From a virus, in the IMG/VR virus record IMGVR_UViG_3300026097_000805, positions 32,001 through 96,000 of that record: a stretch of 64,000 nucleotides of DNA; one strand, written 5' to 3'. Positions 35,282-49,184 of the stretch are shown here, piece after piece. Each line of letters begins with the position of its first letter. Position 1 is the stretch's first letter. The notes under the pieces are model-generated. The model searched no databases and was not told the origin of the DNA. It worked only from the letters and a program-made list of their open reading frames with translations. The position numbers and the translations under genes were made by a program.

Positions 35282-35515
35282 TCACCTAATAAAATAATTG
35301 TATATTCCGTATGCATCTACAAATAGAAACACAAAGTTTTGTATAAACATGGGCTTGTCTTTTAAATAAAAGAACAAACTACTCAAAACCACATGTCCTA
35401 GTGCAAATACAATAAATCCATAGCGACTGTATTCAAAGTTCGAACTTAGTAGTATAGCCGCAATGAAAAATAATATTGTGCCGGTCCACTTGGCAGTCTC
35501 TTGGTAGCGTATCAC
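35282..35515 (-). CDS. Small multi-TM membrane protein
   Basis: Hydrophobic 77 aa. Confidence 0.65.
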   Translation of the reverse strand: MIRYQETAKWTGTILFFIAAILLSSNFEYSRYGFIVFALGHVVLSSLFFYLKDKPMFIQNFVFLFVDAYGIYNYFIR

Positions 35516-35772
35516 TTATCGTATCCGAGTGTAGCAACAAGTGTTTCGAGATCTTCGTGTGCATCTGCATGATTGTCCCAGTCACGATTCTTAGCAATTT
35601 TAATTGCTTTGTTAATAAGTGCAGGTTTGATATCGAGTTCTTCTGCAACAGCTTTTACAGTTTCTTTAAGGCCGCCCTGCAAGTCTTCTACTTCTTGCAT
35701 GACAGTTACTCCTTCACGCACAAGACGTTCTAATTTTGCTTTTTCTTCTGGTCCGTAGGTACGGTCACTCAT
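35512..35772 (-). CDS. DsbA/GapR-like dsDNA-binding protein
   Basis: Helical L..LV.E...QE..DL...LKE..K...EE.DI.P..I.KAIK pattern; strong GGAGG SD. Confidence 0.6.
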   Translation of the reverse strand: MSDRTYGPEEKAKLERLVREGVTVMQEVEDLQGGLKETVKAVAEELDIKPALINKAIKIAKNRDWDNHADAHEDLETLVATLGYDK

Positions 35773-35800: not shown

Positions 35801-35829
35801 AGTATATGATATATTTAGGTAGATGTCAA
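35801..35829 (-). promoter_or_regulatory. sigma70-type promoter with TAAATA embedded in the spacer
   Basis: TTGACA-tctaccTAAATAtatca-TATACT, 17-nt spacer. Confidence 0.78.
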
Positions 35830-35833
35830 GTAT

Positions 35834-36466
35834 TTAAAATACTTTTTTGTTGTCGAACGCACGATCCCATCCAAAGAACTGTGCCTTATAGTCCGAATGG
35901 TCGTCACTTGAAAGATTGATCCATTCGTCTTTGCGTTGCCATAGTTTGACAGCGCCTTCATACCAATCGGTATTGTCGATAATGTTTTCTAGTTTTTCTT
36001 TAGCATCATATGCATCTTCTATTCGATCAAAGTCTTGTTCGATGTGTATTACTTCCATTACTAGATCGTGACTTACAAAGTCCAGACTAAAGTCTATCCC
36101 CCATTTAGGTTTGATGTTGAGCAGCTTTTGTAGTATAGGACGACTGCGACAAATTTCTTCAATCTGTTCTCTTGCTTCTCCTGCAAATGCATATCGTGTT
36201 AGCAGCATACAGTGATCTAATACTAGATTCTGTTCAGTTTGCTCTGTGTCACGATACCACTCTTGTACAGGCGCTATATGGAACTGTATTTCTCGATTAA
36301 GTTCGACACCGTTTGCTTCGTAATGCAAGTGTTCTAGAGGAGTAGGAACTTCGTATCCATCCTTATCAAAGTCTTTGAAAGGAAGTGTTTCTACTAAAGA
36401 TCGCTCTATTGGTTTAGTAAGGAATGGATTGTTTGTAAACTTGGGATGTAAGTTTACTAGATTCAT
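35834..36466 (-). CDS. Hypothetical phage protein
   Basis: 210-aa ORF. Confidence 0.8.
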   Translation of the reverse strand: MNLVNLHPKFTNNPFLTKPIERSLVETLPFKDFDKDGYEVPTPLEHLHYEANGVELNREIQFHIAPVQEWYRDTEQTEQNLVLDHCMLLTRYAFAGEAREQIEEICRSRPILQKLLNIKPKWGIDFSLDFVSHDLVMEVIHIEQDFDRIEDAYDAKEKLENIIDNTDWYEGAVKLWQRKDEWINLSSDDHSDYKAQFFGWDRAFDNKKVF

Positions 36467-36774
36467 CCTATCTCCTGGGCTCCCATTTTACGAATAGCTT
36501 CGTCTATGTATAATGCAAGTTCAAAGTCTAACTGTGTCAAACCGCCTACATCGTGGGTATACACCATTAACACTACTTCGTTATAAAAGAATCCTATGTC
36601 TGCAAAATGGTCTAGTTTTACTTGTGGCTTTTCGATGTACAAAAGGAAGCGTAGCACACTGTTGTAGTCATCGAACGCTACTTTCTTGTATAGATACTTA
36701 CCCTTGCGAATTTCCCAGTCGGAAGCAAACTTTCTACGAATAGGTTCAGCTTGTTCAATGTCTAGTCGCTTCAT
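36463..36774 (-). CDS. Pterin-4-alpha-carbinolamine dehydratase-like protein
   Basis: W......L.K...F..Y, DHFADI..FYN.V...YTHDVGGLT.LDF.LA..ID. Confidence 0.8.
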   Translation of the reverse strand: MKRLDIEQAEPIRRKFASDWEIRKGKYLYKKVAFDDYNSVLRFLLYIEKPQVKLDHFADIGFFYNEVVLMVYTHDVGGLTQLDFELALYIDEAIRKMGAQEIG

Positions 36775-37190
36775 TGTGTTCTGTCCTTATCATCGATTGC
36801 ACCACCACTAACCCAGGCAGTGCAACTACGTGTACCTGCACACTTGAAGTGGAGGAAGTTGCAGTATCCCAAATCTGCTTTATGGATTGTAGCCATTGCA
36901 TCAGCTTCTTTTTCATCACCTTGAATTCCACCTTCTATACAGTTCCACATTTTATCTGATACATCAAATGCTGCACAGTTGTTGCACTGCATGGTCTTAG
37001 CAGTTGTTTCATCTATGCCCCATTTCTTAGCATAGTCTTTCCAGTAAGTGCCTGGCTTTTCAGGATTTGCAGGACCGTACATATAATCGTGGATTGCACG
37101 TTGACGATTTTTAAGATTTACATCAATGTCTTGTGTAGCAACAGGACAGCCTTTGTTAGCTGCTTCTACAAGATTGATGTAAGATCTCAT
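36771..37190 (-). CDS. Cys-rich putative virion internal protein
   Basis: N-terminal MRSYINLVE; CPVAT, CNNC, GYC...HFKC...RSC. Confidence 0.7.
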   Translation of the reverse strand: MRSYINLVEAANKGCPVATQDIDVNLKNRQRAIHDYMYGPANPEKPGTYWKDYAKKWGIDETTAKTMQCNNCAAFDVSDKMWNCIEGGIQGDEKEADAMATIHKADLGYCNFLHFKCAGTRSCTAWVSGGAIDDKDRTQ

Positions 37191-37810
37191 TTATAATCCT
37201 TTAGTGCTGCATACAAACGATCTTTAATTGATTCGGTTGTTGATTCTCTAGGAGCAGATCTTTCAAGGTCATCCATACCTTTAGCTTGACGCATTAGATC
37301 TTGGAAGTCAGTATCTTGCATTTGTTCCGGACTTGCACCGATTGCTTTTCTATCGTCGTTAAAATGCATATAGGCAATTTGTGCAAACATTCTTGCAGCT
37401 TTTTTCGGCATGCCTTTGTTCACAAATTTTTCAATTAATTTGTCTAGCTCTGGATTTTGTTCTGTGTTTTCATCTTCTCCCACGAGCTTGTCTTTCAAAG
37501 GATGTGGTTGTTCGCCGCTTGTGCTAGGAGTGCTTGTTGCGGGCATAGGATCTTTTCCTCTTGCATAGTCTCCGTGTTTTTGTGCTTCATTTACTTGTAC
37601 CCCTGCAAGCGCAGCAAAATCTGCAACACTATCTAGGCCTAAAGGCATAGATCCTTGCGGTACTTGTACTGACTCATTTACATAGTCTTTGGTAGGCGGA
37701 ACATCAGCTACCGCACCGCCTTGTGCTTGAGACTGCAACTTTGCTAGATCTTCTCTAGGATCCGTGGGGTCTAATTCAAATAGTTTACGTTGTAAGTCGT
37801 GATAATCCAT
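37187..37810 (-). CDS. Putative virion internal protein
   Basis: N-terminal MDYHDLQRKLFE; low-complexity modules. Confidence 0.7.
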   Translation of the reverse strand: MDYHDLQRKLFELDPTDPREDLAKLQSQAQGGAVADVPPTKDYVNESVQVPQGSMPLGLDSVADFAALAGVQVNEAQKHGDYARGKDPMPATSTPSTSGEQPHPLKDKLVGEDENTEQNPELDKLIEKFVNKGMPKKAARMFAQIAYMHFNDDRKAIGASPEQMQDTDFQDLMRQAKGMDDLERSAPRESTTESIKDRLYAALKDYK

Positions 37811-37811
37811 A

Positions 37812-38300
37812 TTACATCTTCACACAGTTGTCTACAGTTTTGCCGCCCTTTTTCTTAGTGCCCATACGCTTGTAGCCTTTCCAGCATACTTTGCCGTCTA
37901 CACCTTTTTGCTTTTCTTCAGGTAGGGTAGTATAACTAGGCTTACCACAGTCTGAACAAACACCTTCAGTTTTTTCTGCTAGTTTTGAACGCAGGGCATC
38001 GACATAGTTTTTAGATTCTACAGGCATTTCTGCAGGCATTGCTTGCCCACCGTTTGCAAACTTCATATCATAATCTAGTGCATGGTATACACTTGACATA
38101 TAATCTGCTGCTTTAGTAATTTTGCTCTGCTGCCAGCCCTCGATGCCCTCTGCTTCTGAAACAGTTTTTAACATCTCGTGTAGCTTTACAGCATACTTTG
38201 CAATTTTATATAGGTCTGAACGAGCCATCTGAACTTCGTGATCACGTTCTGCACGATCGGCTAATTCACCTAGACCTTCTTGTATTTTTTTCATTCTCAT
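37812..38300 (-). CDS. Putative virion internal protein with C-terminal Cys/basic module
   Basis: MRMKKIQE; CSDC; CWKGYKRMGTKKKGGKTVDNCVKM. Confidence 0.7.
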   Translation of the reverse strand: MRMKKIQEGLGELADRAERDHEVQMARSDLYKIAKYAVKLHEMLKTVSEAEGIEGWQQSKITKAADYMSSVYHALDYDMKFANGGQAMPAEMPVESKNYVDALRSKLAEKTEGVCSDCGKPSYTTLPEEKQKGVDGKVCWKGYKRMGTKKKGGKTVDNCVKM

Positions 38301-38326
38301 TGAAGCACTCCAATATACGTATAATG

Positions 38327-38332
38327 TATTTA
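38327..38332 (-). promoter_or_regulatory. TAAATA late-type promoter
   Basis: ATAAATAC at the stop of 38330..38848, upstream of a GGAG SD and start 38300. Confidence 0.55.
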
Positions 38333-38848
38333 TCGTTTGAGCGTTTGACCTGACATTAAATTAGCACCGCTGTCTAGTGCATTTGGCGCAACACCCTTGC
38401 GCTTTTTAGGCTTTTTAGCATTACGAGTGACACTTGGATTGGATACTGTGGCAATTGCGCCGCCCCCTACACTTGTTGCACCGCTAGTTGCAGTTTCGTT
38501 ATATACATTTCCTACACTTCGGCTTTGTGCAATTATTTTATCTCCACGTTTAAGTACATAACTTGGAACTGGAGTATCGTGCTTTGAATACACATTTTCA
38601 ATTGCTTTGCCAAAATTCGTCCATTTTTCTTTTGCTGTATTTCCTTCGAAATCTGTAAGGTCAAATTCTTTACCATTATCCATTACAATTACTAAAGTTG
38701 CTTGGCTATCGGCTGTGTTGTCTCTTAATTTTTTCTTGCGACGACGACCACTTGCTTTTGCGGCTTTATAGCTTTTCTTATAGCTTTTTGATTTTAAACG
38801 ACCTTCTGTTTCAATCGATTCTTCGCTTAAAATTTCATTTACTCTCAT
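38330..38848 (-). CDS. Putative virion internal protein (basic)
   Basis: MRVNEILSE start at 38848 (ORF track 38878 extension overlaps a small upstream ORF). Confidence 0.7.
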   Translation of the reverse strand: MRVNEILSEESIETEGRLKSKSYKKSYKAAKASGRRRKKKLRDNTADSQATLVIVMDNGKEFDLTDFEGNTAKEKWTNFGKAIENVYSKHDTPVPSYVLKRGDKIIAQSRSVGNVYNETATSGATSVGGGAIATVSNPSVTRNAKKPKKRKGVAPNALDSGANLMSGQTLKR

Positions 38849-38939
38849 AGTGCTGTCTCCAAAATGCATTACGCTCATTAGTACTTAGTCTTTGCGCTTC
38901 GTGTTCTTTATACTTTTTAACGTAATATGCAATATCCAT
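38835..38939 (-). CDS. Small protein (34 aa)
   Basis: Not in ORF track. MDIAYYVKKYKEHEAQRLSTNERNAFWRQHYESK; TAATG-coupled to the upstream gene. Confidence 0.55.
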   Translation of the reverse strand: MDIAYYVKKYKEHEAQRLSTNERNAFWRQHYESK

Positions 38940-39967
38940 TATTTCTTTCTACCTGATTTCATATTAGCACACCAGTGATACATTTTAGCCTTCTCACCAC
39001 TTGCGTTCTTAGCACGTTTGCGAAGTGCTGTCACTGATCCATTGCAACTAGCACCTGAACGTTTTACACGCCCTGGTCTGCTTTTGCCTTTTTCCTTACC
39101 GTCAGCAAAGTTTTCTTTGACCATTGAACGAGCCTTGTCTAATGCCGCAGCAGCCTTAATAGTCATTGATCCTGCTAGACCAATCTCAAGACCATCTTTA
39201 TCTCTTATAGTAAGGTCCTGCGCAACATCAGCACCTACTTCAACTTCTCCTGCTTTCACTGCTTGTGCTAACCATCTTCTTGCAGCCTTTAGTTCATTCC
39301 ACATCATTTTGTATGTAGCACCACCCTGAAGTTTAAAGCCAGCACCTTTTTTAAAATATTTGTTTATTAAATTTTTGTATTGTTCTTCTGTAGTTGAATC
39401 TCCTGCAGAGTTTTCTTCTACAGGCTCTTGCATATGCTGTTTGATTGCTTTTGCTGTTCTTTCAAATTTATGATCTTTGTACTTAAATCCTATACCACCA
39501 GCTGCTTCCCAGTTGTTGATGTTAACACCATAGTCGTCAATCAGTATGTTAGGTGTGCCGTCTTCGTGTTTAGCATATTGTGGTTTGTTGTGAGTGACAT
39601 ATACTTCTTTGGGCGGGAAAAATGCTAGATTTTCTTCTACCCAAGTACGCTTGTGTCTTTCTGAATTAGGGTCGTCTGCTAAAGGACTGGTACAAATATA
39701 GTATTCACCTTTGACTTGTTTGATTAAATTTAGTAATTCTTTTGCCTGAGGTAGTACGGGAAGTCTTAACCAAAAGTCGTCTGTATCACGTATTTTTTGT
39801 AATGCATCGTCAATGTCATGCTGTTTGTTAATTTGTGTAAAATGATCTACATCCATTAGTCTTGCCCACTCGCCAAAGAAGTCAGCAAGTACACCATCCA
39901 TATCCACATATATTTCACTCGCACTTGCAATCTCGCCAAGATTTTCAAAAATCTCATGTACTCGCAT
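38939..39967 (-). CDS. HAD 5'(3')-deoxyribonucleotidase-like protein with basic C-terminal modules
   Basis: MRVHEIFE; IYVDMDGVLADF, ICTSP, K..W, K..YA, ILIDD...N...W...GG.G. Confidence 0.85.
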   Translation of the reverse strand: MRVHEIFENLGEIASASEIYVDMDGVLADFFGEWARLMDVDHFTQINKQHDIDDALQKIRDTDDFWLRLPVLPQAKELLNLIKQVKGEYYICTSPLADDPNSERHKRTWVEENLAFFPPKEVYVTHNKPQYAKHEDGTPNILIDDYGVNINNWEAAGGIGFKYKDHKFERTAKAIKQHMQEPVEENSAGDSTTEEQYKNLINKYFKKGAGFKLQGGATYKMMWNELKAARRWLAQAVKAGEVEVGADVAQDLTIRDKDGLEIGLAGSMTIKAAAALDKARSMVKENFADGKEKGKSRPGRVKRSGASCNGSVTALRKRAKNASGEKAKMYHWCANMKSGRKK

Positions 39968-40520
39968 CTGCGTTTTCCTTTAATGTAATAACACCACAGG
40001 CTAATCTATCTCCAGCATTGCCTGTTTTTAAACTTTCGTCGTCCCTGCCTTGGCCTAGATCATCTTCGTCACTGTGTACTACAACAGCACGACCTACTAC
40101 ACTGCGTTCACCTGTGAGGTCCACACGTTTTGCTGCTATACTGATGTTAGCAACACCGTCTTCGTCTGCTGTTATATTACCCAGATCGCCTACGTGTCCT
40201 TCGTCCAAATCCCCATGATCAACTCCATCCGGATTATAGTGTCCGCCTGCACTCTCACAACCTTGACTTAAATCACCAAACTCGTGAATATGGAATCCGT
40301 GTTCACCTGGAGTTAGTCCAGTTATCTTGCCTACTATGAGAGTAGGACCGTTTGCTTGTTGCTTGAATAAGATTGTGCCTTCAACTGTGTCTGAATGTTC
40401 TAGCACACATACCGCTGTGACGGTTTCTTGTGCTTCTGTGATCTTGTTTACGCTTTCGCATTGACATGCACTGGCTTTGGTTCTAGGACATTGTGTCGTT
40501 AGCACTTCATAAATTTTCAT
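39954..40520 (-). CDS. sodC: Cu/Zn superoxide dismutase
   Basis: HGFHIHEFGD, GGHYNP, DHG, HVGDLGN, VHSDEDDLG, GNAGDRLACG: all metal ligands recognisable. Confidence 0.93.
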   Translation of the reverse strand: MKIYEVLTTQCPRTKASACQCESVNKITEAQETVTAVCVLEHSDTVEGTILFKQQANGPTLIVGKITGLTPGEHGFHIHEFGDLSQGCESAGGHYNPDGVDHGDLDEGHVGDLGNITADEDGVANISIAAKRVDLTGERSVVGRAVVVHSDEDDLGQGRDDESLKTGNAGDRLACGVITLKENADAST

Positions 40521-41335
40521 TTTTTACGTCCTTGACAATGTGCTTTTTGACTGAAGCCTTTTGGATTAGAGCAATTAATACTGTCTTTATATTTTTTACT
40601 CCATTTTTCTTCTATACTCTCAACCTGTGACATTGCTTTTTGCATTTGCTTTTGACTAAACTTTATACCTTGTCTAACAAGAAATTTTTGTAAGAAGGTT
40701 AAGTGTGCCAAACCAATAGCTGCTGCAATCATTATAAGGATATTTGGTGCAAACTTTTTTATTAGTTCAGCTAATGCACTAGGTTTTTTATTTTTATATC
40801 TAGCTACTATTTGATCAAAATTCTTAGGACGTAGTTGAGGTACTGGAGCAGTTGCTGGTGCTGCTTCAGTTTGTAGCACATCTCGTGCAGTCTTAATAGC
40901 ATCAGGTCCTTGAGGATGTTTCGGATTAATACTTACTACTTCACCATTTATGAGTTCTGAAATGTTAGCCGCTTTGCCTACGCTATCTAGCACTTGATGT
41001 AATTTGTCTTGTGCATCATAGTTGCCACGTTCATAACCTTTTTTACCACGAACTTCTATACGATGTTTATTGTTAGTATCCATGATATGTAAAACATCTA
41101 TTTCGTCGTCTCTTTCTAAACGAAGCTTAATGCCTTCTGTCAGGCCTAAATTAAAAAGAACATTAGTGCTTTTACCTTTGACTTTTTTGCTTAGTGTAGG
41201 CGGACGTCCGTCTCGGTCTACTGTATTGCCAAATTTCTTTGCTTGTTTAGTGATTTCATCAGGGCCTACGTCAGGCGTTGTGTTTACACCTTTTACAATT
41301 CTGCCTACGCCTTCGTATAACTCGTAAACCTTCAT
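40517..41335 (-). CDS. Putative virion internal protein with C-terminal Cys/His basic module
   Basis: MKVYELYE; EKWSKKYKDSINCSNPKGFSQKAHCQGRKK. Confidence 0.7.
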   Translation of the reverse strand: MKVYELYEGVGRIVKGVNTTPDVGPDEITKQAKKFGNTVDRDGRPPTLSKKVKGKSTNVLFNLGLTEGIKLRLERDDEIDVLHIMDTNNKHRIEVRGKKGYERGNYDAQDKLHQVLDSVGKAANISELINGEVVSINPKHPQGPDAIKTARDVLQTEAAPATAPVPQLRPKNFDQIVARYKNKKPSALAELIKKFAPNILIMIAAAIGLAHLTFLQKFLVRQGIKFSQKQMQKAMSQVESIEEKWSKKYKDSINCSNPKGFSQKAHCQGRKK

Positions 41336-41550
41336 TTCTTTTTACGACCCCTAAATTGTACCTGCCCTGTCATATAAGGTTTACTAAACCATAACTGAAA
41401 CCATTCTGGATCACCTGGGCGTATATTCATTTCACGTTCTTTTTTCTTGATAGCTGCCGCTGTCTCGCTAGGATTTTCGTCTAACACATATTCTGTGTAG
41501 CCTTTGAATTCATTTATTCCAGCAAGTTTGCGAAGCTCATCTAGATCCAT
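41332..41550 (-). CDS. Putative virion internal protein
   Basis: MDLDELRKLAGINE; 72 aa. Confidence 0.7.
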   Translation of the reverse strand: MDLDELRKLAGINEFKGYTEYVLDENPSETAAAIKKKEREMNIRPGDPEWFQLWFSKPYMTGQVQFRGRKKK

Positions 41551-43718
41551 TATAGCCCCTGTTCAACTGCTTGAGCTAGTTGCTCCGCACCTACTTCTTT
41601 ACCGTCTAAGTAAATTTTTGCTGTACCTTTGTCTAGCAAGGGCTTTACGGCCATAGGATCCTTGAGAATAGCAAGAGGATCTCCGCCTAGTATCTGTGTC
41701 ATCATTGTTCTAGGATTTTTGTGAAATGCTGGACGATCTAAGACTTTACCGGTAAGTGCTACTTTAAGTCTGCCTATTGTTATACTACCTTTAATTACAG
41801 GTTGACCTTTTCTTGCATCGAAAATAAATCTAGCACCGCCGAACGCATATGACAAATAATCAGCCTCACTCGGTTTGTTTCCTTCTAATGGTCCTCTTGC
41901 TTCTAATCCACCACCGCTAAAAATATAACGAGCTTTACCATCTGCATACTTTATTGTAGACAGGCCATTAACAACGGGAGTTTGCGTTTTGATTAGTTTT
42001 CCATTAGCATCATAAAACTTTTTACCCCATGCTCCACTGTGTGTATAGCTTCCGTCTGCGGCATAGTCTTTTGTGCTCCCGTCTGGTAATTCTTCAGATC
42101 TTTCTTCGTTAAATTCTGCACTCACGTCTGCTGTGTCTTTATCTAATTGTCTTTGGCCTAAATCAATTAATTTTTCTACTGATAATCCGCTCAATTTTTG
42201 TGCTTGTGTTATCATTTGATTTGCTTTTTTCTTTGCTGAAGGTGATAAAATTACAGTTGTATCCATTTCATCTCCGCCAGTGAGGCTACCTTGTAATAAA
42301 TTTTGTGCCCCCATAGCTAGTGCAATTGCTCTTTCTAAATTAGGATTAGAAGATTCACGCATTTTCTTTTTACGATTTTTACAACTTGCTTCAAACGCGG
42401 TTATAACATCTTCGCTTGTAATTTGATAACGCTTGCCGCGGCTCTTAATTTCTTTGCCAACAAGTATTTTAAGAACTTTAGAAAGTTTGGCAATATCTTG
42501 TTCTTTATCAATAGCATCGTCAATTAGCATACGTAGATATTGACGTAGTTGTACAGGGTCGATCACAACATCGCTTTCGTTGGTTTTCTTTTTCTTCTTA
42601 TTATGTTGTGCCCAAGCTATAGCATATGGCGCACCTTCGTCATCCGGAAATTCTTTTTTAAGAGCTTTTACTTGATCTTCTCTTCCTGGAGGTGCTTCTT
42701 CATCAGTCTTTTTATATTTCTTTAGCATCTTCTCCTCATCTGGAGAATCACCAAAATATTTGTGTACTAAATCATCTAATTCGTTGTGAAATTTATCTTC
42801 GTCTTTAGGTGATACATCTTCTTTTTTAAACAAATCATTCAATGAATCATCGGAGTAGCCTGGACCGCTTCCTAACCAACTACGCTGTGACATTCTTGTC
42901 TTTTCGTCCGGTATTAACCCTAACTTTTCGTAGTATTGTCTTAACTCCGATCTTGACATTTCCTGAGATTTTTTAGCATAGTCTGCCATTATTAATTCTT
43001 CTGCTCTTTTTGGATCTATACCATTGTCAATCATCTTCTGTTTTATTCTAGCAAATATATTATTACTATTTTCTGCTACATTTTCGCTTACAGGTGCTTC
43101 TGGATCGCCTAATGCTTTGTTAAGCAGTTGCGTAGCTGTTTGTGCATTCCCTGGATACATTAGTTCGGCGGCCTGTAATTTGTCTTCGTCTGACATTTCT
43201 GGCCATGCTGCTCGTAGCTCACTAGCACTTTTAATGCTCATGCCGCTAAAATTAAAGTCAATTGTAGGACCGTATGCTAGATAACCGTGGGTATCTGCTG
43301 TTTCTAATTCACCGTCATTATAAGAAATTAAGTATCCCATGTTGCCATCACTTTTACGCACTTGATCAGGTAAAGGATGACTTGTTTTATCTTTTTCGCT
43401 ACGCACAAATACAAGTGCTGTCTGTGATGCGTCACTTATAATATCGTTATAGGATAACGCATTAAAAGGTGACTTGACCTGTATAAATCTGTTAGCAGGA
43501 ACACCAGCCATTTGTGCAAGTTTTATCTTTACATCGAATGGAAAAGGCCTTGATTTTGTATCATTAGTTGCTGCAACATATACATTATCTTTACCAAATG
43601 TTTCTACAGCCCAGTCATACAGACTTTTGTGCCCGGGATGAAAAGGATGAAATCCACCAGGCATAACTGCTATTACTTTTTGTGCAGGTGCTGCTTCAAA
43701 TAGTTGACGTAGTCTCAC
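41550..43718 (-). CDS. HIGH-motif nucleotidyltransferase fused to multiple C-terminal modules
   Basis: MRLRQLFE; VMPGGFHPFHPGH, RPFPFDVK, SASELR (KMSKS-like); 722 aa. Confidence 0.75.
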   Translation of the reverse strand: MRLRQLFEAAPAQKVIAVMPGGFHPFHPGHKSLYDWAVETFGKDNVYVAATNDTKSRPFPFDVKIKLAQMAGVPANRFIQVKSPFNALSYNDIISDASQTALVFVRSEKDKTSHPLPDQVRKSDGNMGYLISYNDGELETADTHGYLAYGPTIDFNFSGMSIKSASELRAAWPEMSDEDKLQAAELMYPGNAQTATQLLNKALGDPEAPVSENVAENSNNIFARIKQKMIDNGIDPKRAEELIMADYAKKSQEMSRSELRQYYEKLGLIPDEKTRMSQRSWLGSGPGYSDDSLNDLFKKEDVSPKDEDKFHNELDDLVHKYFGDSPDEEKMLKKYKKTDEEAPPGREDQVKALKKEFPDDEGAPYAIAWAQHNKKKKKTNESDVVIDPVQLRQYLRMLIDDAIDKEQDIAKLSKVLKILVGKEIKSRGKRYQITSEDVITAFEASCKNRKKKMRESSNPNLERAIALAMGAQNLLQGSLTGGDEMDTTVILSPSAKKKANQMITQAQKLSGLSVEKLIDLGQRQLDKDTADVSAEFNEERSEELPDGSTKDYAADGSYTHSGAWGKKFYDANGKLIKTQTPVVNGLSTIKYADGKARYIFSGGGLEARGPLEGNKPSEADYLSYAFGGARFIFDARKGQPVIKGSITIGRLKVALTGKVLDRPAFHKNPRTMMTQILGGDPLAILKDPMAVKPLLDKGTAKIYLDGKEVGAEQLAQAVEQGL

Positions 43719-44041
43719 TTGTAGTCACCTCGCTTGATTTGTTCCATTTCTTCGGAGAATAGTTTATCAATTAGCGCATCGCGGTCTGGCTGTTTAAAAA
43801 CATCTTCAGCAGAACGACCTAGGTTATACTTTTTAACATAACCATTGATACCCTGTTCAATCATATCCATTATCATAGTACGATCAACTTTTTTACCCTC
43901 GCTATGATTATCAGCTAATTTAGCCATACACGGAAAATACTGTTTGCGATAGAAATTAGGGTCGTTGCGCATGTAGTAGCTAGCATCGTCTACAAGATCA
44001 AAAGGTAAGCTATTTTCTGTGACTTCATAAATCTTTACCAT
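43715..44041 (-). CDS. Hypothetical (putative internal) protein
   Basis: MVKIYEVTE start at 44041. Confidence 0.7.
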   Translation of the reverse strand: MVKIYEVTENSLPFDLVDDASYYMRNDPNFYRKQYFPCMAKLADNHSEGKKVDRTMIMDMIEQGINGYVKKYNLGRSAEDVFKQPDRDALIDKLFSEEMEQIKRGDYK

Positions 44042-44595
44042 TTTCTGCAACTCCAATAGCGAGCTTTATGACGAGGTCCCGGATTGTCACAATTGTGTCT
44101 TGCTCTAAAGCTTCTACGTCTTTCTGGATTAGATTTTTTTATCTTAGCACCCTTTTGGCCAAAGTTTACTTTAACTACATTACCTTTTGGATTTTTTACA
44201 TATACTTTGAACTTTTTAACATCGCCCGCCATAGGCTTGCCCAATTTGACTTTGCGACCTTGATACTCTGCTTCGTCTAAGTCATTGTCCTCGTTAAACC
44301 ACATTACTCCGAATTCTTCGTAAAAGTCATCGTCATCATCAAACGTGACTTCCTCTATGTCTTCATCTTCTTCGCCTACATATATATCAAAATCTTCATA
44401 ACCTTGTTCAAACATATAATTAGCAAGCTTTTGTGCATATTCGTCAGATTCATCTAATGTAAGAGCTCTTGCAAGAGGTATTTGAATGACTGTGGTATCT
44501 TGTTCTGTATCATATGATTCAAAAACAGGAAAAATACTTTCGTCCAATTTAGTTGACTCTTGTTTTTCCATTACTACTCTTACAAAATATTCCAT
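44035..44595 (-). CDS. Acidic N-terminal / basic Cys-His C-terminal phage protein
   Basis: LDEAEYQGRKVKLGKP...KVNFG...RARHNC...RYWSCRKW. Confidence 0.75.
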   Translation of the reverse strand: MEYFVRVVMEKQESTKLDESIFPVFESYDTEQDTTVIQIPLARALTLDESDEYAQKLANYMFEQGYEDFDIYVGEEDEDIEEVTFDDDDDFYEEFGVMWFNEDNDLDEAEYQGRKVKLGKPMAGDVKKFKVYVKNPKGNVVKVNFGQKGAKIKKSNPERRRSFRARHNCDNPGPRHKARYWSCRKW

Positions 44596-44604
44596 GATTT
44601 TACC

Positions 44605-44961
44605 TTAGTGATTTAGTTTGATAAAGTTAATTACGCCGTCAGTGTACTCTATATATGCCCGTACCCAAACATAATTTCCTGTAAAATTTGCAATAACACT
44701 CGAAGTAGTGCCTTCATCTGCACTTACAGGGTGAGCTTGCGTGTAAACAGCAAACCAGTCAGCTTCGACCGGATCAATAGCTAGAGTACCTTGTATATTC
44801 ACAGTGCCAATGAATCCTGAGATATCGTATTGAATAGTATGGAGACCGTCACTACGACCGTAGTATCCGTCTCCTTTATATTTGTCACCTGTGATTGTAG
44901 CAACTGAGCTATCACTTGGGTGTGTATTTTGACTTAAGATTATTTCACTGTTATTTGGCAT
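44605..44961 (-). CDS. Putative structural beta-rich protein
   Basis: MPNNSE start at 44961, 5 nt after TAAATA. Confidence 0.7.
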   Translation of the reverse strand: MPNNSEIILSQNTHPSDSSVATITGDKYKGDGYYGRSDGLHTIQYDISGFIGTVNIQGTLAIDPVEADWFAVYTQAHPVSADEGTTSSVIANFTGNYVWVRAYIEYTDGVINFIKLNH

Positions 44962-44965
44962 ACTA

Positions 44966-45610
44966 TTATTTATCAAGATCTTGCTTACAGACAATTTTGT
45001 CTACACGACCAAGACTGCCGAGCATAAGTCCTACAATGTTAAGGATTTTTTCATCTCTTACATAAAAGTATAAACCTTTAGAATATCCACTATTTGCCAC
45101 TTCGTTAAGAAACACAGGGCCTGCTTTTGAAAGTTTTGGATTATTTTGTATCCATTTAGCTAAACTAGGATCAGGCTTAGAGTTTAGTGTTATTCTATAT
45201 TGATAATCACTAGGTTTTTCTACAAGTATGGTATTTTTTGCTAGTATTACAGGAGGTTCATAAAACTCCGTTGGTGCGTTGACTTGAGATGCTATATACA
45301 GAAGCCAATCTTTGTCTTGACTATATAATTGTAGCATAGGATATTCTACGCGGATCTTATAGTCATTCCTTTTAATTAATTCTTTGTATAACCATTTACA
45401 CTCAGTAAAAGTAGCTAAATCATATTCCTTCTTACGATACGTTCCTAACACTAGAGGTTTATTCATTTCCACCATGACTTCGAGTCTAGACAGTTCTTCT
45501 CGAGCAAATCTAAACTTTTTTTCACGGAAAATATAAGCTAGAGAATTATATAACCCTAGCTTATATGGATATTCATTATAGAATAGCTTTTTGGTTTCAA
45601 GAGTTCGCAA
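44966..45610 (-). CDS. Hypothetical phage protein
   Basis: TTG start at 45610 with GGAGAGG SD preferred over the ORF track start 45658. Confidence 0.65.
   Translation of the reverse strand: MRTLETKKLFYNEYPYKLGLYNSLAYIFREKKFRFAREELSRLEVMVEMNKPLVLGTYRKKEYDLATFTECKWLYKELIKRNDYKIRVEYPMLQLYSQDKDWLLYIASQVNAPTEFYEPPVILAKNTILVEKPSDYQYRITLNSKPDPSLAKWIQNNPKLSKAGPVFLNEVANSGYSKGLYFYVRDEKILNIVGLMLGSLGRVDKIVCKQDLDK
44967..44972 (-). promoter_or_regulatory. TAAATA late-type promoter, leaderless (TAAATA-N5-ATG)
   Basis: gaTAAATAatagtATG. Confidence 0.6.
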
Positions 45611-47837
45611 CAACTTCCTCTCCAACACTTTCGAGGCGTAGTTCGCCATCAGCAACATCTATTTTTACACTGCCACCGTGCTTAAGATTGCCAAACAAAA
45701 GTTGTCTAGAAAGAGGACGCTTAATTTCGTTGTCGATAACACGTTGTAGTGGTCTTGCACCCATTTTCTTGTTAAAACCCTTATCGACTAGATAATCAAG
45801 TGCTTCGTCTGATACAGTAATACTAACACCTTTTCCAACTACCATTTCTTTAAGTTCAACTAGGAACTTGCCCACAATCTTAATCATAACTTCCTTGCCA
45901 AGTTTAGCAAAGGTTATTGTTCCGTCTAATCGATTACGGAATTCAGGTGCAAAGAATTTTTTCAGTTCAGTATCTTCGTATTCTTTATCAGTTTCGTCTG
46001 TAAAGCCAATAGTATTCTTTTCTGCTTCCTGTGCGCCTAAATTAGTTGTTAGGATAAGAACACAATTACGGGCATCTGCTTCCTTGCCATTAGATCCAGT
46101 AATTTTACCATTGTCCATAACTTGTAGTAAAATTTGTGAAACATCAGGGTGTGCTTTCTCGATTTCGTCCAGCAATAATACACAGTTAGGATTTTCTTGT
46201 AGTTTAGTTATAAGCAATCCGTTGTTTTCTTCATACCCTACATAGCCCGGAGGAGATCCGATTAGTTTAGCAACAGCATGCTTTTCTTGATATTCGCTCA
46301 TATCAAAACGTACAAGTTTTACACCTAAGTTATTAGCAAGAGCTTTAGCTGTCTCCGTTTTACCTGTACCAGTCGGACCCATAAACACAAAACTGCCAAT
46401 TGGTTTATCATCCGGTTTCAAACCAGCTTGTGCTACAAGAATTTTATCTACAATACTTTCGATAGCTGTGTCCTGACCGTAAACAACACCTTTCAAATTC
46501 TTTTCAAGATTTACAAGATTTTCTGTTTCACGTTCTGCAACTTGCTCCTCAGGTAAATTTATAGTCTTTGCAAGTTCAAATTCAATTTCTTTTTCGCTAA
46601 CAATTTTTTCATCAACAGGGTCTTTTAGATTAAATCTTGAACACGCCTGGTCAATTAGATCAATTGCTTTGTCAGGAAGTTTTTTATCAGATTGATATTT
46701 TACACTTAACTTAACAGCCGCTTCTATAGCATCGTCAGTAATTGTTGTATTATGGTAGTCTTCATAATACTTTTTAATACCTTGCAAAATATCGTTAGCT
46801 ACTTCTGGGCTCGGCTCGTCTACGGTCACACGCTGGAAGCGACGCATCAGCGCACGATCCTTTTCAAAGTATTTGCGATATTCTTCCCAGGTAGTACTAG
46901 CAACAACTTTTAAGTCGCCTTTTGTAAGAGCAGGCTTTAACATATTTGCTAGATCGTTTGAACTATTTTGTCCACCAGCGCCGGCACCGTTCATCATGTG
47001 TGCTTCATCTACGAACATAATGGTTTTACCTTTTTTACGAAGTCCTGCAAGCACAAGTTTAAACCGTTCTTCAAAATCTCCGCGATATTTACTACCAGCT
47101 AACATAGCACCAATATCTAGATTGTAAACTTGATATTCGTTTAAAAATTCAGGAACATTTCCTTGTACGATGTTAAAAGCCATACCTTCAGCAATAGCTG
47201 TTTTACCAACACCTGGCTCGCCTACTAGTAGTACATTATTTTTACTACGGCGCCCTAGTGCAAGCGCAATACTATCAAGCTCTTCCGATCTTCCAATTAC
47301 AGGATCTATTCTATTACGTTTTACTTCATCATTTAAGTTAGTTGTGAATGAACGTAAAGCACGTTGTGCAGCGCCGCTGATCTCTTCATCTTCAATAATC
47401 TCTTCTACTTCATTATCTAAGTAATCTGCAAATTGTTCTTTGGTGACACCACCCTTTTGTAAGAAGTAGTAAGAGTGACTTTTCTTTTCTGATAACATAC
47501 TCATTGCAACATCGCATAGTTCTATATTATTTCTACCGGCAAACAATACTTGAGTAAATGCTCTATTTAAAACTCTTTCTACAGTTTGTGTTTTTTTAGG
47601 TTTAAATTTGGTTGTGTCTATTTTTATATCGTCTAAATTATTTTTCAAATAATGTTCTAAATTAGCTTTGATAAAATCAACGTCCGCACCATAACCTTTT
47701 AAAATATTAAAAAAGTTTTCACTGCACATCATGCTAAACAAAAGATGTTCTAATGTAACATATTCGTGTTTTAATTTTTGTGCATCTTTAACTGCTTTGT
47801 CAAATACTAATTGTAGCTCTTTGCTCGGTTCAACCAT
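45597..47837 (-). CDS. clpA: ATP-dependent Clp protease ATPase subunit ClpA
   Basis: Clp N-domain (HEYVTLEHLL), GEPGVGKT, AGSKYRGDFEER, GPTGTGKT, LLDEIEK, GARPLQR; no ClpB middle coiled-coil. Confidence 0.93.
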   Translation of the reverse strand: MVEPSKELQLVFDKAVKDAQKLKHEYVTLEHLLFSMMCSENFFNILKGYGADVDFIKANLEHYLKNNLDDIKIDTTKFKPKKTQTVERVLNRAFTQVLFAGRNNIELCDVAMSMLSEKKSHSYYFLQKGGVTKEQFADYLDNEVEEIIEDEEISGAAQRALRSFTTNLNDEVKRNRIDPVIGRSEELDSIALALGRRSKNNVLLVGEPGVGKTAIAEGMAFNIVQGNVPEFLNEYQVYNLDIGAMLAGSKYRGDFEERFKLVLAGLRKKGKTIMFVDEAHMMNGAGAGGQNSSNDLANMLKPALTKGDLKVVASTTWEEYRKYFEKDRALMRRFQRVTVDEPSPEVANDILQGIKKYYEDYHNTTITDDAIEAAVKLSVKYQSDKKLPDKAIDLIDQACSRFNLKDPVDEKIVSEKEIEFELAKTINLPEEQVAERETENLVNLEKNLKGVVYGQDTAIESIVDKILVAQAGLKPDDKPIGSFVFMGPTGTGKTETAKALANNLGVKLVRFDMSEYQEKHAVAKLIGSPPGYVGYEENNGLLITKLQENPNCVLLLDEIEKAHPDVSQILLQVMDNGKITGSNGKEADARNCVLILTTNLGAQEAEKNTIGFTDETDKEYEDTELKKFFAPEFRNRLDGTITFAKLGKEVMIKIVGKFLVELKEMVVGKGVSITVSDEALDYLVDKGFNKKMGARPLQRVIDNEIKRPLSRQLLFGNLKHGGSVKIDVADGELRLESVGEEVVANS

Positions 47838-48336
47838 TTATTAACCTCTTTTGTTTTTCTAGCTTTTTGTTAGCCATTGCTAATTTTAATTTCGATACTC
47901 TATCAGTGAAAGTGACACCGTTAAGATGGTCATACTCATGCAAAAAGCATCTAGCATCTATTCCACTAAATTCTATTATACATTCTTTTGCGTCTAAGTC
48001 AAGAAATTGTGCAATTATTTTACTAGGTCTCTTGACATGTAATACTAATCCTGGATAACTTAGACACCCTTCTGGTCCGTTAACAGTCTCTTCATCTACT
48101 TCTAAAATCACAGGATTAATGATAGCAAATGGCTTTTTAATTTCAGGGTGTTCGATCGGACGCATCACAAAGATTTGTGCATCTAAACCTACTTGATTTG
48201 CACTCAACCCAATACCGTTTTGTGCCATCATAATCTCACACATCTTTCCAGATATATCCACAGCATCTAAAGTATCAAAATTAAAAGGCTTAACAGATTT
48301 ATCAAGCCATTCATCGGGTGCTTTAACTAATTGCAT
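47830..48336 (-). CDS. def: Peptide deformylase
   Basis: [23 protein letters not shown]. Confidence 0.95.
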
Positions 48337-49141
48337 TTTTTATTTCCTCTATTTTGTCAAGTAAGTCTTTGTCTTCGATTTTTGGAATATTTGCATCTAT
48401 TTTTATGTATAAATTTCCCTTCCTACCTGTATTTACATTAGGAACACCGTGACCTGCGATACTAAAGGTAGTTCCTGGTTTTGTTCCTTTGGGCACATTT
48501 AAATTTAGCAAATTTCCTGCTGGCGATTCTATTACTATCTCTGTCCCTAATAGTAAGTCGAAGACTGATATTTTTTTTGTAGTTGTAAGATTGTCTTCTG
48601 TGCGTTTCCATATTGAGTTTGGAGGTATCCGAATTTTTAAATTTAAGTTGCCTTTTGGTATATTTGAAAATGTGTCATCTCCGTATCCTGCGAAATTTAT
48701 CACATCGCCGTCTTTCACTCCTGGAGGAATCTTAACATCTAAAAATTGTTGCTTACCGCTAGGCAGTTTATAAGCAATACTTACACCTCTACCTGTAAAG
48801 ATATCTATAAAATCTAAGTTGTATTGAATTTGTATATCTTTATTTTTTCGTATACTATTATGTCTCGGTCCTCCAAAACCAAAAACTTGAGAAAATACGT
48901 CTTCAAAATTATGCATATTATGCATATTAGATGTGTTAAAATTTCCTTGATGACTAGGACTGTCGTATTGCTTACGTTTTGTAGGATCTTTCAAGACATC
49001 ATAAGCTTCGTTCACTTGCTGCAATTTTTCTGCAGATCCGCCACGATCGGGATGATGCTTCATCGCAAGCTTGCGGTAAGCTTTTTTAATATCATCTTGA
49101 GAGGCGGTTTTACCTACGCCTAGGATAGAATAATAGTCCAT
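48323..49141 (-). CDS. DnaJ-class co-chaperone (type II, no Zn finger; CbpA-like)
   Basis: [25 protein letters not shown]-terminal DnaJ beta domains; start at 49141. Confidence 0.9.
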
Positions 49142-49146
49142 ACAGT

Positions 49147-49152
49147 TATTTA
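49147..49152 (-). promoter_or_regulatory. TAAATA late-type promoter, leaderless (TAAATA-N5-ATG)
   Basis: ggTAAATAactgtATG. Confidence 0.6.
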
Positions 49153-49184
49153 CCGCATGGACCATTGTGTAAAGTTAGTACTGA

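Follow-up and report, generated by a model that had tools for sequence, protein, structure and literature searches.

Our analysis centres on a run of genes at 36.5-45.0 kb of a 64,000-nucleotide stretch of viral DNA (the window: bases 32001-96000 of the 179,647-bp IMG/VR record IMGVR_UViG_3300026097_000805, CheckV completeness ~50%), which is best interpreted as the variable 'internal protein' cassette that a jumbo phage of the T4 superfamily carries. Most of the cassette genes would encode cargo behind an N-terminal tag of 8-10 residues, M-[KR]-h-x-[ED]-h-x-E (h, hydrophobic), and by analogy with T4 the tagged proteins are probably loaded into the capsid and travel with the DNA into the host. 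We consider it likely that the phage has a capsid-loading and processing system of the T4 type, with a cargo larger and more diverse than that of T4. A first-pass annotation of the DNA had already proposed that the shared N-termini are capsid-targeting propeptides of the T4 type, and every indirect test run supports that reading, namely the match to the T4 tag, a tagged head-core gene, a protease in relatives, virion data from phage PA5oct, the candidate cut sites and the promoter-like motif. The nearest relatives by DNA polymerase are Sinorhizobium phage Phosso (49%), Agrobacterium phage Atu_ph07 (45%) and Vibrio phage 2.275.O (43%), which identifies the record as a genome fragment from a T4-superfamily jumbo myovirus. 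A marine origin is indicated by several homologues found in Tara samples. A search of the phage collection for near-identical DNA gave no match.

The eleven minus-strand open reading frames described previously (g1 to g11, Table 1) and their quoted N-termini are all exact in the sequence. A Shine-Dalgarno-like site precedes each chosen start by 7-11 nt, and this applies equally to g4 (internal ATG), g9 (GTG) and g10 (second start); orthologues in related contigs share these start points. The proposal that all eleven proteins share one tag holds in part. Seven (g3, g4, g5, g6, g7, g9 and g10) carry the canonical form and g1 is T4-like, whereas g8 and g11 have family-specific variants, conserved within their own families and ending in h-x-E, and g2 is doubtful because its L-F-E is L-F-A in most orthologues (MDFNALQHKLF[AE]LDPSDP). 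Tags range from 5 to 14 residues in length with Leu, Ile, Val or Phe at P3. The earlier annotation had called for the motif to be compared with background, and the enrichment is clear: [LI]-x-E occurs within the first 14 residues of 10 of the 11 cassette proteins, compared with 10-11% of internal windows and ~11% of the genome's other genes once tagged clusters are excluded (binomial P ~1e-9). The stricter pattern M[KR]h.[EDQ]h is found at 8 of 252 N-termini and at none of 1026 internal Met windows. With a scoring matrix trained solely on related contigs, the top 12 N-termini all fall in three places in the record, these being the cassette, a cluster at 164-172 kb and a single gene at 142 kb, and g4 has the highest score in the genome. 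Beyond the tag the proteins are mutually unrelated, as first suggested, with an all-against-all comparison giving a sole match at E = 0.08. As codons vary freely between tags, the tag is conserved at the level of protein and not of DNA. Among dismutase homologues a tag of varying sequence is retained in 85 of 120 clusters, and in 12 related loci M-[KR]-h-x-[ED]-h-x-E begins nearly every cassette gene.

Comparison with T4 provides the framework for interpreting this peptide. The capsid-targeting sequence MKTYQEFIAE, cited in the first-pass annotation, is present in the T4 record at the N-termini of IPII and IPIII. T4 gp24 begins with a 10-residue propeptide, MAKINELLRE, and gp67 with a shorter form, MEGLIE. 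In T4 the 10-residue tag loads almost any protein into the prohead; targeting is sensitive to positions 4 and 7, cleavage to positions 8 and 10, and Asp at position 10 prevents cleavage. The tag is the sole common feature of T-even internal proteins, and T4 internal-protein loci are involved in host conflict. In the cassette as in IPII, IPIII and gp24, otherwise unrelated proteins begin with a short peptide that has a basic second residue, hydrophobic residues at intervals and a hydrophobic-x-Glu end, and further common ground with T4 is a variable gene cassette and a T4-type protease in the lineage. The present phage differs in tag length (mostly 8 residues, against 10 in T4), in having at least 15 tagged genes in half a genome compared with a handful in T4, and in a cargo among which are a dismutase, a nucleotidase and a nucleotidyltransferase-like protein. 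Part of the cargo also resembles multi-module proteins with putative internal cut sites, unlike that of T4. The ejection proteins of phiKZ, 201phi2-1 and SPN3US offer a second comparison, as they are head-internal, are cleaved after Glu by a related prohead protease and are delivered to the host. Their motif is A/S/G-x-Glu and their propeptides mostly exceed 100 residues, in contrast to the 5-14-residue tags described here.

A link to the head itself comes from relatives in which the head module is available. The T4 head genes are ordered 20, 67, 68, 21, 22, 23 in the T4 record, and the small gene that follows the portal, at the gp67 position, is tagged in three relatives: G004 (MKLKSLIE), Vibrio phage 2.275.O (MKLVELFE) and PA5oct (MKINDIITE). 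Across this family h-x-Glu lies within the first 12 residues of 75 of 82 representatives, mostly as M-x-[LI]-x-E-h. The gp67-position family therefore has the same N-terminal signature as the cassette and sits between portal and protease, although it is a conserved single-copy head gene whereas the cassette is variable cargo. In all three phages it is followed by a T4-type Peptidase_S77 protease, whose conservation across the best 120 metagenomic clusters, a few or more of them from contigs of 300 kb or longer, is 87-100%; the PA5oct and G004 proteases are 55% identical. The PA5oct record flags virion proteins found by ESI-MS/MS (electrospray ionisation tandem mass spectrometry), and the gp67-position protein gp333 is a virion protein by mass spectrometry. 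Four of the six tagged PA5oct proteins are so flagged, compared with 93 of 461 overall (20%; binomial P ~0.017). The PA5oct virion proteins gp254, gp105 and gp104 have a cassette-type N-terminal tag and no assigned function. PA5oct differs from the present phage in that its tagged genes number only six, are scattered and encode no recognisable enzyme. Vibrio phage 2.275.O is a weaker model than hoped because it has only eight scattered strict tags and few genes in common.

The h-x-Glu signature recurs inside the cargo, and most clearly in the dismutase g6. The first 31 residues of g6 form an extension comprising the tag, a CPRT..C.C stretch and I-T-E|A ahead of the core; alignment to human SOD1 begins at residue 35. 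A fixed [LIV]-x-E stands at a constant offset ahead of the dismutase core in 117 of 118 homologues. All metal ligands are retained in the alignment, and 50 homologues show no variation in the Cu/Zn ligands, the disulfide pair or the active-site Arg. In the predicted structure the core has pLDDT >90 and the pro-region is disordered. The protein is of the eukaryotic SOD1 type, ~55% identical to the human enzyme and without a signal peptide, and the pro-region C-P-R-T-x-A-x-x-C-x-C is conserved in all dismutase homologues. The SOD1 copper chaperone works through a C-x-C motif, and by analogy the pro-region might aid metal loading or disulfide formation. The low confidence of the AlphaFold pro-region makes the model uninformative on the role of Cys-x-Cys.

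Several cassette proteins have small C-terminal modules in common. Three kinds of basic Cys end-module occur on unrelated carriers (NFADGK...CANMKSGRKK, AEYQGR...ARYWSCRKW and KWS...AHC.GRKK), and each kind always starts directly after Glu, mostly in an h-x-E context. In g5 the NFADGK module is preceded by MVKE| and in g7 the KWS...AHCQGRKK module by SIEE|, while the AEYQGR module of the g11 type is preceded by h-D-E| in 9 relatives. A 674-aa protein of a relative has two end-modules in tandem with a ParB-like domain between them. This arrangement fits, in sequence, precursors that are cleaved into modules, and the basic Cys end-modules may be DNA-binding peptides released in the head. Module sites in the window lie, on the minus strand, at 38939-39100, 40517-40600, 44035-44280 and 37812-37960, the last being CWKGY...NCVKM, a further module that likewise recurs on unrelated carriers behind a Glu.

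In the nucleotidyltransferase-like protein g9 the cleavage motif is avoided. The architecture of g9 consists of a cytidylyltransferase-like HxGH domain, a AIAWAQHNKKKK module and a C-terminal half without an assigned family. In its 707-residue body [LI]xE is absent where 6.3 are expected (P = 0.0004), whereas [LI]xD occurs 14 times against 7.9 expected. Its orthologues, which start with ATG and MRLRELFE, contain 5 [LI]xE against 12.7 expected. The [VF]xE sites of g9 are few (212, 216 and 538), and the first two lie at the end of the transferase domain. A general depletion of [LI]xE in tagged proteins was considered and rejected, as ratios are 0.85-1.21 in tagged and 1.07-1.26 in untagged proteins and depletion is confined to the g9 family. 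In two of three sets tagged proteins have the lower ratio of [LI]xE to [LI]xD (P = 0.017, 0.08 and 0.88 across the three), a weak signal.

A late promoter, TAAATA at 44967, had been proposed upstream of the cassette. The sequence is part of a fuller motif, GATAAATA (44974-44967, minus strand), which carries a real positional signal, whereas the canonical T4 form lacks positional bias. The genome contains 17 copies of GATAAATA, 16 of them on the main coding strand, and 12 of the 17 lie 20-32 nt ahead of a start codon, including those of five tail-fibre genes and of lysis-region genes. The position of the motif at the cassette head is kept in five relatives, and that ahead of g3 orthologues is conserved in four. 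The T4 late promoter TATAAATA was rejected as the cassette promoter, with 15 copies and no positional bias, and scans of the cassette for sigma-70 promoter sites and terminators were at chance level. The motif stands exactly 5 nt before the g12 ATG in the window and in relatives L013, L014, L016, L018 and L020. With a transcription start placed as at T4 late promoters, the g12 mRNA would be leaderless.

These observations support a model in which the tag would dock cargo onto the scaffolding core during prohead formation, in the manner of the T4 capsid-targeting sequence. A T4-type (S77) prohead protease of the phage would then cleave after the Glu of h-x-Glu and remove the tag. The same cleavage would free modules, among them the dismutase core (cut after I-T-E) and the small basic end-modules with their Cys residues. 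Mature proteins would stay beside the DNA inside the head and accompany it into the host, the delivered set comprising the Cu/Zn dismutase, the 5'-deoxynucleotidase, the nucleotidyltransferase-like protein and several basic proteins.

Table 1. Features of the tagged cassette, listed from its promoter-proximal end (window coordinates).
Feature	Position	Strand	Remarks
GATAAATA promoter-like motif, cassette head	44967..44974	-	5 nt ahead of g12 ATG
g12, 118 aa, conserved, tagless, family unassigned	44605..44961	-	first gene past GATAAATA motif
g11, 186 aa, N-terminus MEYFVRVVME	44035..44595	-	acidic N-terminal part and basic Cys module
g10, 108 aa, family unassigned, tag MVKIYEVTE	43715..44041	-	second start; GGAG 9 nt upstream
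g9, 722 aa, GTG start, tag MRLRQLFE	41550..43718	-	Pfam PF01467, weak
g8, 72 aa, basic, N-terminus MDLDELRKLAGINE	41332..41550	-	14-residue family-specific variant, last residues I-N-E
g7, 272 aa, tag MKVYELYE	40517..41335	-	conserved GVGRIVKGVNTT module, one hydrophobic segment
g6, Cu/Zn superoxide dismutase, 188 aa, tag MKIYE	39954..40520	-	PF00080, E = 6e-49
g5, 5'-deoxynucleotidase (NT5C), 342 aa, tag MRVHEIFE	38939..39967	-	PF06941, phrog_2643
g4, 172 aa, basic (pI 10), tag MRVNEILSE	38330..38848	-	internal ATG with GGAG upstream; family unassigned
Second GATAAATA motif	38327..38334	-	27 nt ahead of g3 start
g3, 162 aa, tag MRMKKIQE	37812..38300	-	C-terminal Cys-rich basic module CWKGY...NCVKM
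g2, 207 aa, acidic, family unassigned, N-terminus MDYHDLQRKLFE	37187..37810	-	doubtful tag
g1, 139 aa, 7 Cys, tag MRSYINLVE|A	36771..37190	-	near T4 form; family unassigned
g0, 103 aa, pterin-4a-carbinolamine dehydratase-like, starts MKRLDIEQAE	36463..36774	-	PF01329, E = 4e-16

Only three products of the eleven originally described match Pfam, these being the NT5C nucleotidase, the Cu/Zn dismutase and, weakly, the cytidylyltransferase-like domain. The basic Cys module of g11 has a weak DUF5754 match and ends in ARYWSCRKW, and g8 ends in RGRKKK. Orthologues of g10 start MRIDEF or MRINEF. The open reading frame of g4 extends upstream to 38878, with the tag read from the internal ATG; the upstream HFGD[NS]T reading is also found in g4 orthologues and corresponds to the ribosome-binding site. 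A search of the ESM Atlas with g7 gave no usable match, and no orthologue of g1 was found among 12 related loci. The gene g0, which closes the cassette beyond the range of the first-pass annotation, is a possible extra member with a matrix score of only 2.4. In relative L020 a g0-type dehydratase domain is fused to a basic AHCAGRKK module.

The cassette is found at the equivalent position in 12 related IMG/VR loci and one 370-kb JGI contig, bordered on one side by a DnaJ-like/deformylase/ClpA-like block and on the other by a small gene adjoining the DNA polymerase. Gene content is locus-specific and domains are shuffled, with the GVGRIVKGVNTT module fused variously to NT5C, ParB_N or dismutase. 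Some related cassettes encode 712-984-aa proteins with peptidoglycan-binding domains, as is typical of ejected proteins. In an 833-aa cassette protein at L012:4533-7034 (+), a peptidoglycan-binding domain is joined by two annexin repeats (Pfam E = 4e-16), which are unusual in phage. In L011 (15291-16895) and L017 (4946-6550, both +) a 534-aa gene with 24% identity to a radical-SAM-island gene of this genome ends the cassette. In the window the DnaJ-like gene (48323-49165), peptide deformylase (47830-48336) and ClpA-like ATPase (45597-47837), all on the minus strand, lie upstream of the cassette, as in all relatives, and a ClpP-like open reading frame, named from sequence alone, occupies 119928-120545 of the record. 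On the other side an 86-aa gene (35512-35772, minus strand) has a weak match to T4 DsbA, seen only via a relative's annotation, and is preceded by a near-consensus sigma-70 promoter (TTGACA, 17 nt, TATACT) at 35801-35829 on the same strand. Outside the window, the 164-172 kb cluster of the record includes a DUF6267 protein starting MRYKEFRLVE, and the single tagged gene spans 142153-143847. Cyanophage S-PM2 and pelagiphage HTVC008M also have DUF6267 near a cytidylyltransferase gene; there DUF6267 is tagless, and the HTVC008M transferase starts MKTLKELL.

Three other explanations deserve consideration, each of which accounts for fewer facts than the T4-type reading. Tagged proteins could enter the prohead core solely as assembly or scaffold accessories, to be degraded and expelled at maturation or to condense DNA or protect against oxidation inside the virion, and not as effectors. 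This would suit the best-conserved tag carrier being the gp67-position head-core protein, given that T4 core proteins are cleaved into fragments which exit the head, and it would suit the many cassette proteins with small basic modules resembling DNA binders. However, the enzyme domains are intact with their catalytic residues retained, cassette turnover is high as at T4 internal-protein loci, and the purging of cut sites from g9 argues for survival of the mature protein, so that a purely accessory role appears unlikely. Recognition of the tag by a different machine, either the ClpA-like unfoldase encoded two genes upstream acting with ClpP or a modifying enzyme such as a radical-SAM protein, is suggested by the DnaJ-like/deformylase/ClpA-like block that always lies directly upstream and by the ClpP-like reading frame in the genome. 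Yet Clp genes do not adjoin the tagged clusters at 142 kb and 164-172 kb or the genes of the tagged PA5oct proteins, the head-module gene between portal and protease is tagged as well, and a radical-SAM-like gene is present in the cassette at only 2 of 12 loci. A leader recognised by a radical-SAM/SPASM enzyme would, moreover, be expected to be long, near-identical and enzyme-adjacent, whereas the tag is short and degenerate. We regard such a signal as distinctly improbable. That the shared start is a feature of the nucleic acid, either a translation-initiation context or a recombination junction without peptide function, seems scarcely credible to us. Neighbouring cassette genes do overlap by ATGA, Lys/Arg codons at module ends also serve the following gene as its ribosome-binding site, and AAA, ATT and GAA are AT-rich codons of the type favoured at 5' ends. 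Against this, codon choice within the tag varies freely, the pattern is missing from the ~230 other genes, including tail-fibre genes with the cassette's late-type promoter motif, and the h-x-Glu signature recurs internally at module boundaries.

The T4-type reading has its own weaknesses. Four of the eleven N-termini are non-canonical, and the tag is short and composed largely of common residues. Tagged proteins as a group are not depleted in internal [LI]xE. The virion evidence is indirect, coming from PA5oct rather than from this phage or its close relatives, and the PA5oct enrichment is based on six proteins. Neither this record nor a 275-kb relative (77% complete) contains protease, portal or capsid genes, and that this phage has them is accordingly deduced from more distant relatives. 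Searches with the Pfam S77 and Gp23 models and with the Vibrio phage protease found nothing in this record (~50% complete) or in three larger relatives; we take the head module simply to lie off these genome fragments. Packaging, cleavage and injection in this phage are predictions from sequence, and injection, unlike presence in the prohead, is without support here.

A broader proposal, which we put forward tentatively and hold at somewhat less than even, is that an abundant clade of marine jumbo phages has adapted the head-loading tag of T4 for the delivery of proteins in general. Each genome would then deploy at least 15-20 proteins recognisable from sequence, many of them multi-module precursors cut at hydrophobic-x-Glu, with modules swapped between a conserved tag and basic ends. 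The cargo would include an active eukaryote-type Cu/Zn dismutase, whose Cys-x-Cys pro-region may aid maturation in a bacterial cell, and nucleotide enzymes acting before phage expression. A tag that works as in T4 would in itself imply a natural enzyme cargo far beyond T4 Alt, in the form of a dismutase, a nucleotidase and a nucleotidyltransferase-like protein, together with precursors cleaved into modules. For annotation, the tag combined with Glu sites would provide a simple rule to mark head-internal proteins across the T4 superfamily. If the tag works as in T4, the injected proteins of uncultured ocean phages would become listable from sequence alone, yielding a ready set of candidate counter-defence and host-takeover proteins.

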